Positions 19,308 to 27,524 of a stretch of DNA of 32,000 nt are shown one piece after another. Each line of letters begins with the position of its first letter. Position 1 is the first letter of the stretch. This stretch comes from Archaeoglobus fulgidus DSM 4304 (lineage in GTDB: Archaea; Halobacteriota; Archaeoglobi; Archaeoglobales; Archaeoglobaceae). The translations under genes and the position numbers were made by a program. The notes below the pieces were generated by a model. That model was not told the DNA's origin and did not search any database. It was given only the letters and a program-made list of their open reading frames with translations. Where the stretch lies: contig NC_000917.1 in assembly GCF_000008665.1 (NCBI RefSeq), positions 90,001 to 122,000 on the forward strand, in the 5' to 3' direction.

Positions 19308-20633
19308 ATGGTTGTGAAGGTAAAAATGTTGTACTGGGTTGATGAGGTGGGGGGAAGGGCTGAATCAATGGAAATCGAACTCAAGCCCTTTGGCTATAGA
19401 ACCGCTCCCATAACTCAATGGGAAGTGCTTATAGCTGCTGAAGATGTGGAGGTCGAGAAGGGAAAACCCGTAATCGTAAGAGTTGAGCCGGTTTTCCTTC
19501 CTGGAAACACCCTTGTCGGACCTCTAAGTATCATGAGACACGCTCTTGGCACCTTAGTTGATGTCGTGGAGTGCGGAGTTCCGGGCAGGGTTGAGGATGA
19601 GAAGTGCATAAGCAGGGTCCTGTTTCTTCCAGTCGAGGATGGTGTTATAAAGAAGGGTGACATGGTAGGTGTTCTTAAAGTTTTCTATATAAAGACGGGG
19701 CTGCTTACAAGAATTCTGGGGCTTGAGCCACCGAAAGTTGAACTAAAGAAGGGATTCCACGAAGCCAACATAGTCTGGAGGGACAACGGCAACATCTACA
19801 GAGAACCTGCAAAGGTGACAATTCTGGGCTATATGAGGAGCCACATTGGTGTATGGGAACTTCTCGTTGCGGATGAAACGGTGAGGGTGAAGAGGGGTGA
19901 CGTGCTGAGAATCAGAATAAAGGAGGTCAGACTACCACCTAACACCGTTGTTGTGCCACTGCCTGTGATGAGAAACGCCTTTGGGACGGTGCTGGACGTG
20001 GTACAGCTCGGAAAGCCGAGCAGAGTTGAGGAAGAGAAGACACTACACCAGGCGATATTCCTCGCAGTGGAGGACGGAGTGATTGAGGAAGGAGACCTCA
20101 TCGGAGTTATAAACGTCTATTACGTCGGATTGGGGGATTTCAAGCCTTTAGTGCAGGATAAGCCGCCGCAGAAAGTGAGAATCGTTTACAGGAGTGGTGA
20201 CGGCATCGTAAAGAGGGAGGTAGAGGTTGAACCGTTCGGTTATAGGAGGAGTCCGGTTGGGAAGTGGGAGGCTCTCATTGCGGATGAAAGCAAGCCGGTT
20301 CGCTACGGGGAGCCAGTTGTCGTGAAAGTTAAGAGAGTTCGAGTCCCACCCAAAACAATTCTCTATCCCCTCCACATCATGAGACACGCCTATGGAACCG
20401 TTGCGGACGTTTTCTGCGACTGTAAGCCTTGGAAGGTTGAAGAAGGGGGAGAAATCAAAAAGGTAGTCTTCCTGCCCGTCATGGACGGAGAAATCAAAGA
20501 AGGAGAGTTGTTAGGTATAATAAACCTGCACGATGTCGAACTCAGCCCGCTAGGAAGGGTGAGGCAGTGGCTCGACAACTGGCTGACGGAGATGGGCAGA
20601 ACGTTTGACGAGGGGGACTGGCCCCTCTGGTGA
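19308..20633 (+). CDS. Triple-module repeat protein with a C-terminal DWPLW tail, function unknown
   Basis: The ATG at 19308 is preceded by the SD GGAGGTGA; the ORF track starts at the TTG at 19299. Three internally homologous ~140-aa modules are followed by the tail RVRQWLDNWLTEMGRTFDEGDWPLW*. Confidence 0.8.
   Translation: MVVKVKMLYWVDEVGGRAESMEIELKPFGYRTAPITQWEVLIAAEDVEVEKGKPVIVRVEPVFLPGNTLVGPLSIMRHALGTLVDVVECGVPGRVEDEKCISRVLFLPVEDGVIKKGDMVGVLKVFYIKTGLLTRILGLEPPKVELKKGFHEANIVWRDNGNIYREPAKVTILGYMRSHIGVWELLVADETVRVKRGDVLRIRIKEVRLPPNTVVVPLPVMRNAFGTVLDVVQLGKPSRVEEEKTLHQAIFLAVEDGVIEEGDLIGVINVYYVGLGDFKPLVQDKPPQKVRIVYRSGDGIVKREVEVEPFGYRRSPVGKWEALIADESKPVRYGEPVVVKVKRVRVPPKTILYPLHIMRHAYGTVADVFCDCKPWKVEEGGEIKKVVFLPVMDGEIKEGELLGIINLHDVELSPLGRVRQWLDNWLTEMGRTFDEGDWPLW
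19326..20552 (+). repeat. Three tandem, in-frame, divergent coding repeats of ~411-435 nt (protein modules)
   Basis: The anchors [FL]GY-x8-12-W-E-x-L-[IV]-A-[AD]-E, P-x-N/K-T-[LIV], [IV]MR[HN]A-x-GT and VED/MDG-x-I-x-x-GD/E-[LM]-[IV]G[IV] recur at ORF-track residues 31, 176 and 313. Confidence 0.8.
19860..19951 (+). repeat. 92-nt tract identical to 22437-22528 in the paralog
   Basis: Base-by-base comparison shows identity over cttctcgttgcggatgaaacggtgagggtgaagaggggtgacgtgctgagaatcagaataaaggaggtcagactaccacctaacaccgttgt. The flanking coding sequence is clearly diverged. Confidence 0.85.
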
Positions 20634-20638
20634 ACATT

Positions 20639-21843
20639 CACCAATTTTTTGGCCCTGTTTCATCATACTTGGAATTTCACCTCCACCATACAACCCTTCC
20701 CAACCATCTCACCAATAAACGACTCATACCTCTCCCTCTCAACATATCTCCTCAGCAGCAAATTCAGCAGGTTCTTTGCCCCTCTCTCGCTCCATGACAT
20801 CCACTTGTTCTTCATTCTCTTTGCTATTTCACCCATAAGCCTCCATCCAGTTATTGTGCCAGGGAATTGTTATCCCCTCAAGCTTCTTGTATGCAAACAA
20901 AAGAATGTTCTCCATATGCCTTTTAAAGAACCTCGAAACCCTCCTTTTTCTTCCATTTCCTTTACGAATTCATTCAGAGCCTTCTCTGTTTTCTTAATTC
21001 TGCTCTCTAAATCTGGCTTCTCTATAGAGTTCTTAAGCCTGAGCAGGATTCCCTTAACTTCGTTCACGTACTGTTTTCTTGTTTCGAGATCAACTCCGTG
21101 CTGCCAGAGTTTGTAGTTAACCTCTCTCCAGATGTGAATGAGATCTATCTGCCTTTCTTCAAAACAGCTGAGATCTCTGTCAGCATCTCCTACGATTGTT
21201 GCTTTAACGTCGTACTCTCCTTTCATTTCCCTATAGCTCTCGTTAATCCCAACGATAACGCTTTTCCCAGCGATAACCTTTACATCGAGCTTACCTTTAC
21301 CCTGGGCATGGAGCTTAGTACTGTCAGCAGATACAAAGTCATCGTATTCGAATTCCGATTCTGCTTCCATTCCAAGCTCCTGCACCCTCCTCCATATCGT
21401 GAGATGGGATGGAGATTCTGTCATTCTCTGCAGTCTCTGTCTTGAATCCCTGTAGCTCATGGATAAGGCGTAATCGACAGCTATTGCAGCTATGTCTGGC
21501 TGATAAGTTCTTTTTCCATCGAATTCTACAAGGCTGTACAATGGGCAGAAAGTTCTGCCGGTCGATTTTGTCTTTGACCCTGCTAACTTTAAAGGCGGTC
21601 TTACCGAGCTGCGTTACAATTGTTCTCTTCTCTCTGCTGTGTTTATAGTAATCGTTTTTGCCATATCCTTTTCCACAGATTGAAGAGACAAGAATGTTGT
21701 CTATTTCCCCAAAACCTTTCCTAAAATTACAGCTTCAATTTCTTTTAAAGCATTCTGAGTATGTCCTTGTTTGTTAGCTTCCTCACGTGACAATCTTGTT
21801 GGGATGTAAAGTTATTTCGGGATACTACAGCACCAATTTTTTT
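20639..21843 (-). mobile_element. Insertion sequence of ~1.2 kb with a decayed transposase, inserted between the two triple-module paralogs
   Basis: Transposase-like coding sequence fills the whole interval. A direct repeat CACCAATTTTTT occurs at 20639-20650 and 21831-21842, possibly an 8-bp target-site duplication (AATTTTTT) plus chance. The terminal inverted repeats are weak (GGCCCTGTTTCATC vs GGTGCTGTAGTATC). The size is compatible with the ~1.2-kb IS class reported for A. fulgidus, but this is from memory and unverified. Confidence 0.65.
20663..21793 (-). pseudogene. IS transposase (ISLre2/UPF0236-like by eye) disrupted by several frame changes
   Basis: The longest ORF (20870-21541) is only 223 aa, has a TTG start and ends at a TAA. 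Protein-like continuations lie in other frames. Upstream is ...ICGKGYGKNDYYKHSREKRTIVTQLGKTAFKVSRVKDK. Downstream are ...RHMENILLFAYKKLEGITIPWHNNWMEAYG and GEIAKRMKNKWMSWSERGAKNLLNLLLRRYVERERYESF...*. Confidence 0.6.
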
Positions 21844-21855
21844 AACAAAAAGTTT

Positions 21856-21868
21856 TATAACAGTTAAT
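21856..21868 (+). promoter_or_regulatory. TATA-like promoter element (TATAACAGTTAAT) of the second paralog
   Basis: It matches 19274-19286 at 12 of 13 positions. It lies just outside the IS boundary, 23 nt upstream of the ATG at 21891. Confidence 0.4.
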
Positions 21869-26638: not shown

Positions 26639-26820
26639 TTTTCACACCTCCGATTTTTTATGATTTTTAATTTACGTTGTATGATTTGATTCGATAAAGC
26701 TTGTTTTCAGTTTACAAAAATAAATTTTTTTATGTTTAGTATCTCAATCTATATTACGATAGAATAAGATGAAATATAGTGAAAGATACTTGTATACCTT
26801 AGAACAAATGAGCATAAATT

Positions 26821-26870
26821 TTATGATAAGGTATGGTAAAGTATTGGTAAAGTATCACTATTTATGATAA
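26821..26870. promoter_or_regulatory. Symmetric repeat array upstream of the RHH gene, a candidate operator/promoter
   Basis: The array reads TTATGATAA (26821-26829), then ggta, then TGGTAAAGTAT twice in tandem (26834-26844 and 26845-26855), then cactat, then TTATGATAA (26862-26870). More TATGAT copies occur at 26658 and 26680. Confidence 0.45.
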
Positions 26871-26915
26871 TTGTTTCAGAAAACCTTTTATGCTCGCAGC
26901 AATAATAAAAGTTCA

Positions 26916-27524
26916 ATGCCGAAGTTCAAGAGATTGTCCGTTGCAGTTGATGATTCTATTGTGGAAATCCTTGAAAAGCTAACGGCAGTGGAAAATAAGA
27001 CAGTATCCGACATTATCAGAGAATCGATTATAACTTATGCCGAACTTGCAGAGGGTGGGGCGAGAATATCTGATCTCAAGCAGTACGAGGACATCCTCGA
27101 AAGAAGGGACCACGTAATGGTGGACCTCGAAATGTGGATTGCCCTCCTCGACCTCGTAAACGCGAAGGCCGACGAAGAATTCTGGAAGCTCATAGAGAAT
27201 GTTGGTTACGAGCTAGGCGTGGAGATGAAGCTTAAAGGCTTCGGCCTCGACGAGCTGCTCGAGCATATGAGAATCAAAAACCTGCTCAACTACAGCAGAG
27301 AGGGTGGAATTTACATTCTGACGCTGGTTTCGAGAAGTGCTACGAACATGGTCATGAGGATGTTGAGAGGAGCATTCAGGGCAATGCAGATTGAAGCGGA
27401 GGTTATTCCGGGAGTCAGAAAAGTGGTCATAGTGGACAAGAAGGCCCTCAAAGATAAGGACGTGCAGAAGTGGATAGCAGAGATGGGAAGGACCTTTGAG
27501 GGGTCCGACTGGCCAATGTGGTGA
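26916..27524 (+). CDS. Ribbon-helix-helix (CopG/Arc-like) DNA-binding protein with an unknown middle domain and a C-terminal DWPMW tail
   Basis: From the ATG at 26916 the N-terminus is MPKFKRLSVAVDDSIVEILEKLTAVENKTVSDIIRESIITYAELAE, which follows the RHH pattern. The protein ends VQKWIAEMGRTFEGSDWPMW*. The ORF track starts at the TTG at 26871. Confidence 0.75.
   Translation: MPKFKRLSVAVDDSIVEILEKLTAVENKTVSDIIRESIITYAELAEGGARISDLKQYEDILERRDHVMVDLEMWIALLDLVNAKADEEFWKLIENVGYELGVEMKLKGFGLDELLEHMRIKNLLNYSREGGIYILTLVSRSATNMVMRMLRGAFRAMQIEAEVIPGVRKVVIVDKKALKDKDVQKWIAEMGRTFEGSDWPMW

Follow-up and report, generated by a model that had tools for sequence, protein, structure and literature searches.

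A stretch of 32,000 nucleotides from Archaeoglobus fulgidus DSM 4304 (contig NC_000917.1, positions 90,001 to 122,000; hereafter the window, whose first letter is position 1) encodes a peptide tail of about 20 residues, ending in the motif WPxW directly before the stop codon, which closes unrelated proteins of a single gene neighbourhood. The tail is carried by two proteins made of three tandem DUF22 modules (DUF22x3 proteins 1 and 2) and by an RHH (CopG-type) regulator, and it also makes up a 26-residue microprotein, AF_0126. Comparison with related loci indicates that it derives from the C-terminus of a family of long TauE/TSUP permeases. With a confidence that falls just short of even, we tentatively favour the view that it is a lineage-specific docking or exchange peptide through which the transporter is linked with its RHH regulator and with the DUF22 proteins.

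Four terminal tails in one gene neighbourhood

An earlier reading of the window (the original prediction) had reported that three open reading frames (ORFs) share a C-terminal peptide, and the translations agree exactly. Tail 1, at 20556..20633 (+), closes DUF22x3 protein 1 (RVRQWLDNWLTEMGRTFDEGDWPLW-stop), tail 2, at 23132..23209 (+), closes DUF22x3 protein 2 (KVKQWMDRWLDEMGEAFAESDWPMW-stop), and tail 3, at 27462..27524 (+), closes the RHH regulator (VQKWIAEMGRTFEGSDWPMW-stop). The clustering of the motif was also confirmed by a six-frame scan of the 32 kb, although the count is four rather than three, the additional copy being AF_0126, and a stop codon follows WPxW immediately in 4/4 cases. 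This frequency lies far above chance, as the expected number of WPxW-stop occurrences in 32 kb is 0.053 and none of 300 first-order Markov simulations gave more than 1.

The consensus consists of an amphipathic, net-acidic helix, W-[IL]-x-x-M-x-x-x-F, followed by a [DE/K]-W-P-x-W hook. The tails have hydrophobic moments (muH) of 0.44-0.72, a net charge of -1 to -3 and a mean hydrophobicity of about 0, and the amphipathic helix that had been proposed to precede WPxW is also present as a helix in AlphaFold2 (AF2) models. No transmembrane (TM) segment exists within the tail, again as first described, the longest run of uncharged residues (hydrophobic ones plus G, P, S, T and Y) in any tail being 4. 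At the nucleotide level the window tails are identical at only 30-44/63 nt, 25-43% of the codons for identical residues differ synonymously, and Rfam contains no RNA family over any tail; on these grounds the repeat is a peptide-level feature in this genome. The Pfam assignments (PF01402 versus PF01629) confirm that the body of the RHH protein is unrelated to the triple-module proteins, and the portability of the tail is extended by its presence on DUF22x3 proteins, RHH regulator, microprotein and permease alike.

The tails and their neighbours are arranged as follows (window coordinates, strand in brackets):

19299..20633 (+): DUF22x3 protein 1, three tandem DUF22 modules plus tail (PF01629 in three stretches, E = 5.8e-125)
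20870..21541 (-): ISH6-family transposase fragment, between the two DUF22 genes (NCBIfam NF041731, E = 2e-32)
21879..23209 (+): DUF22x3 protein 2, frameshifted near 22556-22559 in this sequence
23210..23620 (-): 136-aa membrane protein of the AF1633-type family, paired with the short TauE, no tail
23617..24486 (-): short TauE/TSUP permease, 289 aa, no tail (PF01925, E = 9e-38)
24630..25133 (+): USP-family protein, 167 aa, whose gene converges on that of the microprotein and abuts it (PF00582, E = 3e-18)
25134..25214 (-): AF_0126, 26-aa microprotein, tail only (MRLKELFDAQMEYFGEVFEKTEWPYW-stop)
25211..26638 (-): long TauE/TSUP permease, 475 aa (PF01925)
26639..26915 (no strand): AT-rich spacer separating the divergent long TauE and RHH genes, containing direct as well as inverted repeats
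26916..27524 (+): RHH (CopG-type) regulator, 202 aa, with RHH domain, ~120-aa domain and tail (PF01402)

Distribution and selection

Loci and proteins compared in this analysis are designated by L and P numbers, respectively. A profile of the four tails, run exhaustively with HMMER against 1.84 billion representative proteins (E <= 1e-3), retrieved 3 proteins only, namely a DUF22x3 fragment, AF_0126 and a DUF22x3 protein with a degenerate tail, and a word-index protein search with a 44-column tail alignment gave 2 candidates. Apart from chance internal matches in Acidobacteriota, every hit in the scans of 185,579 species genomes and of JGI metagenomes (the latter with a six-sequence alignment) was an Archaeoglobaceae locus with the same neighbourhood; both the restriction to one gene neighbourhood and the outcome of the profile scan suggested with it are in agreement with the original prediction. 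The Acidobacteriota candidates (L006, L007) were discarded as chance matches because the motif is internal (...EGEWPLWNRF...) and the ORFs are unrelated. The view that the tail corresponds to no named motif or family also holds in Pfam, NCBIfam and literature searches: Pfam and NCBIfam matches of the carriers end before the tail, with no described family over the last ~25 residues, and the literature search for a prokaryotic WPxW motif found only CD20 mimotopes.

In syntenic loci both DUF22x3 paralogues, the RHH protein and the microprotein have kept their tails. The pooled ratio of nonsynonymous to synonymous differences (pN/pS) is 0.20 for the RHH tail (20 codons, 5 distinct orthologous sequences) and 0.16 for the DUF22x3 tail (25 codons, 12 distinct orthologous sequences), and it falls to 0.078 for the microprotein (17 codons, 7 distinct orthologous sequences), with pS = 0.64-0.81 in all three classes. 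All three tail classes are under purifying selection, and the earlier claim that conservation acts on the peptide is sustained by a pN/pS of 0.08-0.20, with synonymous sites near saturation.

The long TauE permease as a carrier of the tail

The long TauE of the window consists of a TauE core, a 2-TM C-terminal extension and a C-terminal helix ending in ...GIDAWASEVKAGVGA-stop. In five long TauE homologues (P0025, P0027, P0029, P0063 and P0091) the tail is fused in frame, the C-termini being ...GLEEWIDSMSDKFEKERWPLW in P0025 and ...GLEAWIDYMEREFGKDKWPVW in P0027, and the permease of metagenome locus L014 likewise ends in a fused tail. The fused termini align with the RHH and DUF22 tails without internal gaps. 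The ends of tail-less long TauE proteins, that of the window included, align to the first half of the helix, through a nearly invariant W, and their conserved terminus, G[IL][DE]xW[IA], aligns gap-free with the tails. Since fused forms and tail-less termini align in register, the tail appears to be the C-terminal helix of the long TauE family extended by the WPxW hook. In the A. fulgidus clade the tail would then have become a separate gene through fission or partial duplication. Both arrangements coexist at L019, where a fused paralogue and a canonical split locus lie on one contig, with five tails in 11 kb. The co-localised TauE proteins had initially been listed as candidate partners of the tail; the link to the long TauE stands, but the in-frame fusions in paralogues and orthologues make this permease a carrier itself, beyond a candidate partner.

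The loop before the 2-TM extension is rich in Lys and Arg, and thus positively charged, and in the 614-aa protein P0076 a USP domain is fused to the long TauE C-terminus. From the positive-inside rule and from the USP fusion at the same end, the permease C-terminus is predicted to be cytoplasmic, which would fit the cytoplasmic RHH and DUF22 carriers. In A. veneficus (L009 11379-12203) and in L024 (11436-12233) a tandem-USP gene overlaps the long TauE stop. These overlaps and the P0076 fusion suggest that USP domains have been recurrently coupled to the long TauE terminus in lineages without WPxW tails.

The 2-TM extension also displays a conserved loop, F[RH]DP[ED]WWPxF (...FRDPEWWPNF... in the window), predicted to be extracellular. 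Its double-W form is limited to the clade with WPxW tails or microproteins, DPxAWPxF or nothing being found elsewhere. As a receptor for the tail this loop was rejected, because its position between the two extension TM helices, opposite the Lys/Arg-rich loop, predicts an extracellular location under the positive-inside rule. In Desulfofundulus kuznetsovii (L010 9754-9999) the 2-TM extension has a gene of its own, of 81 aa, immediately upstream of the gene for a 391-aa TauE that is 56% identical to the archaeal protein. This suggests that the split or fused TauE architecture is common to archaeal and Firmicute sulfate reducers. TSUP permeases are abundant in sulfate reducers, where their function is considered unknown (PMC5840216); no structure of the family has been solved, and a Foldseek search of the PDB gave no relative.

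The AF_0126 microprotein

AF_0126 is a 26-codon ORF annotated as 'predicted coding region AF_0126', whose ATG overlaps the TGA of the 475-aa TauE gene (ATGA; context gcATGAgg). The ATGA overlap recurs at the likely microprotein start in nearly all orthologous loci, with a GGTG resembling a Shine-Dalgarno sequence ~8-9 nt upstream in most. Given the low pN/pS and the conserved overlap, AF_0126 is a real, selected gene that is probably coupled to the permease in translation. The microprotein and the fused permease forms have the ending F-E-K-x-x-W-P-x-W in common. An extra small tail ORF in L002 is not a microprotein, as it lacks any ATG, GTG or TTG; it is what remains of the 3' end of a second DUF22 gene that has been lost.

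A second microprotein family, of 46-47 aa, occurs in A. sulfaticallidus (L008 12137-12277) and in L023 (12603-12746). This ORF and the single-module DUF22 gene upstream of it (L008 11491-11973; L023 11957-12454) have a common variant ending, ISIDPEVF[VI]KSDWPYLWKK. The DNA of the variant-tail copies is nearly identical within each of the two genomes and different between them, which suggests homogenisation by gene conversion.

Comparative pattern across loci

The minimal conserved set, found in L002, comprises DUF22x3, microprotein, long TauE and RHH genes. The USP, the short TauE and the 136-aa membrane protein are not at that position and all tails are kept. The RHH tail is restricted to loci that have the canonical microprotein or whose contig is too short for a verdict, namely the window, L001, L002, L011, L016, L017, L019 and L022. 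It is missing in A. veneficus, A. sulfaticallidus, L023 and L024, and so is the canonical microprotein in all four. The departures from the canonical arrangement are the following:

L003: no long TauE adjoining; RHH tail interrupted at its first W by a stop codon (...LESSE-stop-P-stop); DUF22x3 tail intact
L015: microprotein diverged (...SFLYTPWPYW); RHH without tail
A. veneficus (L009) and L024: DUF22 genes and microprotein missing; tails entirely absent
L025 and L026 (two independent samples, one lineage): long TauE in at least 3 ORFs; DUF22x3 tail degenerate (...EVVSYSDWPFGSKKISK); RHH without tail
A. sulfaticallidus (L008) and L023: long TauE intact, without WPxW; variant tail on the single-module DUF22 and the 46-47-aa ORF

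In the L025/L026 lineage the degenerate, extended tail of the DUF22x3 protein (P0003; ...SYSDWPFGSKKISK) accompanies a pseudogenised long TauE, whose fragments lie at L025 12090-13440 and L026 7035-7985. Two expectations of the original prediction were borne out in part. The tail is kept in syntenic loci, but it is missing from some more distant orthologues. Similarly, a strictly C-terminal position holds in the A. fulgidus clade but not in more distant lineages, where endings such as ...DWPYLWKK-stop, ...DWPF-stop and ...DWPFGSKKISK-stop are found (the DUF22x3 protein of L023 ends in ...EPDWPF-stop). As the variant endings of the A. sulfaticallidus-type lineage show, the motif usually, but not invariably, closes the chain. 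Across the loci, tail integrity appears to track the long TauE/microprotein pair together with the DUF22 genes; this co-distribution is supportive evidence and not proof, because the loci are phylogenetically non-independent.

At L003, a TIGR04084 (AF0577-type) radical SAM/SPASM gene (6100-7128, minus strand; 351 bits, cut-off 225) occupies the long TauE/microprotein position, between the DUF22x3 and RHH genes.

Structure predictions

Monomer AlphaFold models were obtained for two carriers, and the placement of the tail was judged from the predicted local distance difference test (pLDDT) alone. DUF22 module 3 with its tail (20172-20630; 13-row alignment) is modelled as an all-beta domain with a core pLDDT of 85-95, followed by the tail, which is helical at pLDDT 53-64 and falls below 50 in its six final residues (GDWPLW). 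Foldseek comparison with the PDB revealed a weak similarity of the module to trimeric dUTPase/dCTP deaminase (E = 0.013, prob 0.99, template-modelling score 0.34-0.45), and the three tandem modules could form a single-chain pseudo-trimer. The fused-tail permease P0025 (107-row alignment) gave a mean pLDDT of 90 and a predicted template-modelling score (pTM) of 0.88, with a continuous C-terminal helix over residues 446-474, at pLDDT ~90 to residue 470, and a drop to 53 in the last nine residues (FEKERWPLW). Its sole meaningful neighbour in the PDB was BacA/UppP (Foldseek). In these models the helix would have a defined place on the permease, and the hook would be unattached in either monomer, which is what a motif that binds in trans should show.

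A proposed docking peptide and its alternatives

The motif and its portability, the selection on the peptide, the permease fusions, the microprotein coupling and the co-distribution of intact tails with long TauE and DUF22 genes are observed; that the tails bind, to which receptor, and with what effect on regulation is inferred. The tail would be a short cytoplasmic interaction module whose native place is the end of the long TauE/TSUP permease. Where the permease stops after the first half of the helix, as it does in the A. fulgidus clade, the coupled 26-aa AF_0126 would supply the complete tail. The DUF22 beta-domain proteins of the cytoplasm and the RHH regulator, encoded divergently from the permease, bear copies of the same tail. 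Every tail would dock to one kind of site in the transporter complex, most likely the cytoplasmic face of the long TauE and alternatively a DUF22 module. Docking would either bring the regulator and the DUF22 proteins to the transporter or set them in competition with AF_0126 for it; by sequestering or releasing the regulator, it would make transcription of the locus depend on how much transporter is present or on the state it is in.

Several observations weigh against this docking model. The loci are phylogenetically non-independent and several are near-identical contigs. The tails also track the DUF22 genes, and none occurs in the loci without them (L009, L010 and L024), so that the comparative data do not separate a TauE receptor from a DUF22 receptor. 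The DUF22x3 tail of L003 is intact, yet no long TauE lies within 6 kb, and the fused-tail permease of L020 has neither a DUF22 nor an RHH gene nearby. Finally, the high pLDDT of the permease helix may reflect only the deeper alignment.

A more elaborate form of docking, which we consider doubtful, is that tail mimicry serves as signalling. The permease would possess a site for its own detachable peptide, AF_0126, the regulator and the DUF22 proteins would carry mimics of it, and the four tail 'flavours' would compete. If true, transporter occupancy or conformation would translate directly into the release or capture of a transcription factor, and one portable peptide of 20 residues would suffice to wire the transporter to the genes in a single step.

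The remaining explanations differ in the partner that they assign to the tail. It is rather unlikely that the tails associate with one another, the helices of permease or microprotein, DUF22 and dimeric RHH proteins forming a mixed bundle capped by WPxW with no separate receptor. The same helix register, W-I/L-x-x-M-x-x-x-F, and a strong hydrophobic moment in all carriers would suit such a bundle, as would the single continuous 29-residue C-terminal helix that AF2 gives on the permease, and the conserved 'flavour' of each carrier class could encode pairing specificity. Nevertheless, the helix is short (~14-16 residues) and contains a conserved Gly (EMG), its heptad periodicity does not go beyond two turns, and the strict conservation of W-P-x-W is better suited to insertion into a pocket than to capping a bundle. 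Alternatively, the DUF22 beta-domain might act as a hub, whose trimer-like body would bind the tails of permease or microprotein, RHH and other DUF22 chains in its inter-module clefts. Proteins of the dUTPase-like fold have a flexible C-terminal arm that extends to the neighbouring subunit, and both the resemblance of the module to these trimers and the potential pseudo-trimer agree with a hub, as does the confinement of the tails to DUF22-bearing loci among those examined. A hub of this kind is nonetheless unlikely, as the fold match is weak, AF2 leaves the tail undocked on its own module, and the tail-bearing L020 permease has no DUF22 gene within 7-10 kb.

An interfacial membrane anchor, in which the helix and the Trp-Pro-x-Trp end lie in the membrane interface and recruit non-specifically like a MinD/FtsA-type sequence, would explain why the tail is amphipathic and Trp-rich and why it directly follows the last TM helix in the permease. 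Known membrane-targeting helices are cationic, however, and the negative charge of the tail, to which the terminal carboxylate adds, its hydrophobicity of about 0, and the failure of an anchor to account for a translationally coupled 26-aa gene or for class-specific tail conservation make this quite improbable. A processing signal, either a C-terminal degron or the substrate of a peptide-modifying enzyme (a precursor of cofactors or of ribosomally synthesised and post-translationally modified peptides (RiPPs), e.g., PqqA or MftA), appears very improbable. AF_0126 does resemble a small precursor peptide with a conserved aromatic C-terminus, and the TIGR04084 gene of L003 stands between DUF22x3 and RHH; but that arrangement occurs in one locus only, the locus has no conserved gene for a maturase or protease, the radical SAM gene of the window is activase-like, under every family cut-off and syntenic with housekeeping genes, and one would not typically find a RiPP precursor sequence repeated at the ends of a permease, a DNA-binding protein and a 444-aa protein. 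The original prediction had also proposed the USP protein as a partner, and as the common receptor it has only the slightest probability: its gene abuts AF_0126, and USP is fused to, or overlaps, the long TauE terminus in P0076, A. veneficus and L024, but precisely these lineages have no tails, whereas L002 and A. sulfaticallidus keep tails without a USP gene at the locus. As L002 retains all of its tails, the USP is dispensable in cis.

Genes of the locus and its surroundings

DUF22x3 protein 1 matches PF01629 with 409 bits (cut-off 25) over three stretches and likely starts at the annotated ATG at 19308; its orthologues in L001, L002, L003, L005, L011 and L019 carry the tail. In DUF22x3 protein 2, joining frames 0 and 2 rebuilds a complete three-module paralogue, of which intact orthologues exist in L001, L005 and L011, and the frameshift in 21879-23209 is either a pseudogene or a sequencing error. 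A merged gene, 'AF0121m', is cited as expressed in a transcriptome paper (PMC3949148). The match of the intervening transposase fragment to NF041731 is under the family cut-off and covers the profile in part only; the fragment is missing from syntenic loci, and in L001 both DUF22 genes adjoin. Searches of PDB sequences with the DUF22x3 and RHH proteins gave nothing significant, and no paper on DUF22 in Archaeoglobus was found in the literature. In L016, a contig 91-93% identical to the window, the DUF22x3 and long TauE genes are broken across frames (4761-6090 and 8321-9519), which reflects either assembly error or parallel decay.

The 136-aa membrane protein had been labelled DUF1634, an assignment that was not reproduced: the window copy has no Pfam match, its orthologues are assigned to PF27423 (AF1633), and a weak DUF1634 match is confined to a related 149-aa protein of L023 assigned to AF_1016. 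Neighbouring genes cited as AF0121m and AF0123-AF0124 are up-regulated on H2/CO2 plus thiosulfate (PMC3949148); judging from gene order, they would encode DUF22x3 protein 2, the 136-aa membrane protein and the short TauE. The long TauE scores 124.9 bits against PF01925 (cut-off 32.6).

The RHH_1/CopG match of the regulator (PF01402; 32.1 bits, cut-off 20.5) spans residues 21-58 of the ORF, and the ~120-residue middle domain has no family match. Its start is most likely at 26916 (202 aa) rather than at 26871, as in database orthologues. The family has 13 members, all from Archaeoglobaceae, of which 10 end in WPxW, and tail-less orthologues stop directly after the body domain. Upstream of the RHH gene, the intergenic region 26639-26915 contains a perfect tandem of TGGTAAAGTAT x2 at 26834-26855, a second direct repeat of TTTATGATAA x2 and an 18-nt inverted repeat (26738-26755/26773-26790), which are candidate RHH operator sites and promoters. 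Downstream, a tRNA gene (27562-27636, minus strand; Rfam RF00005, 63.6 bits) lies 38 nt from the RHH stop on the opposite strand.

A Cys-rich ORF of 131 aa (18806-19201, minus strand), without family match, is kept beside the activase-like radical SAM gene, and in L014 and L021 such an ORF (~114 aa in L021) directly adjoins the fused-tail permease. Positions 2400-4930 form a 2.5-kb region with no ORF of at least 110 aa, only ORFs of 63-108 aa, and no Rfam match. The rest of the window contains housekeeping genes, and Pfam scans of the main ORFs gave no shell, sortase or maturase genes.

Relation to known systems and significance

A portable C-terminal linear docking motif is a known kind of element, and several established classes were compared with the tail. 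A PGF-CTERM or sortase-type signal requires a motif, then a hydrophobic TM helix and, at the C-terminus, clustered basic residues; the tail has W as its last residue and acidic residues shortly before it. The tail also differs from MinD/FtsA-type membrane-targeting sequences, which are net positive amphipathic helices, in its charge of -1 to -3. Like the cargo peptides of encapsulins and bacterial microcompartments (BMC), it is short, usually terminal, partly helical, portable, conserved at the peptide level and common to unrelated proteins of adjacent genes. Unlike them, it has an unrelated sequence and its carriers include an integral membrane permease and a DNA-binding regulator, and no encapsulin or BMC shell gene was detected by Pfam scans of the main ORFs of the window. 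No RiPP maturase lies beside the precursor-like gene in the window or in most syntenic loci, TIGR04084 occurring in L003 only. The WPxW ending is further reminiscent of HbYX, of PIP-box or clamp motifs and of the SSB tail, as a short conserved aromatic C-terminal motif on unrelated proteins. HbYX, the PIP-box and the SSB tail insert into a pocket of a common partner and are predicted to be disordered until bound. Regular-expression searches of the four tails found neither the HbYX pattern (hydrophobic-Tyr-any) nor the PIP-box Q-x-x-[LIMV]-x-x-[FYW]-[FYWL], and, unlike such hub-docking motifs, WPxW is confined to one operon-like locus in one archaeal family.

Two further parallels concern the transporter. 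In Mlc-PtsG, MalT-MalK and PutA, transcription factors are sequestered by transporters, and here too the control of a regulator would depend on its physical recruitment to the transporter encoded beside it; the difference is that the present regulator bears a copy of the transporter's own terminal peptide. KdpF, AcrZ and MgtS are microprotein subunits of transporters and consist of single TM helices. AF_0126 resembles them in having fewer than 30 aa, in its predicted co-translation with the transporter gene and in strong purifying selection, and differs from them in being soluble and amphipathic, the detached C-terminal tail of a permease. What is unusual about the tail is the combination of a membrane permease as native carrier, a stand-alone coupled microprotein, and a copy on the locus's own transcription factor.

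The narrow distribution of the tail, in Archaeoglobaceae, limits the generality of these findings. Within that family, a peptide that links a TSUP permease, a divergent regulator, the DUF22 proteins and a microprotein provides an experimental handle on all four, DUF22 being an orphan family. The locus also offers a natural example of a short linear motif moving between unrelated prokaryotic proteins, and of a protein terminus split or duplicated into a selected microprotein gene. Moreover, it may possibly represent a case of transporter-coupled transcription control in Archaea.

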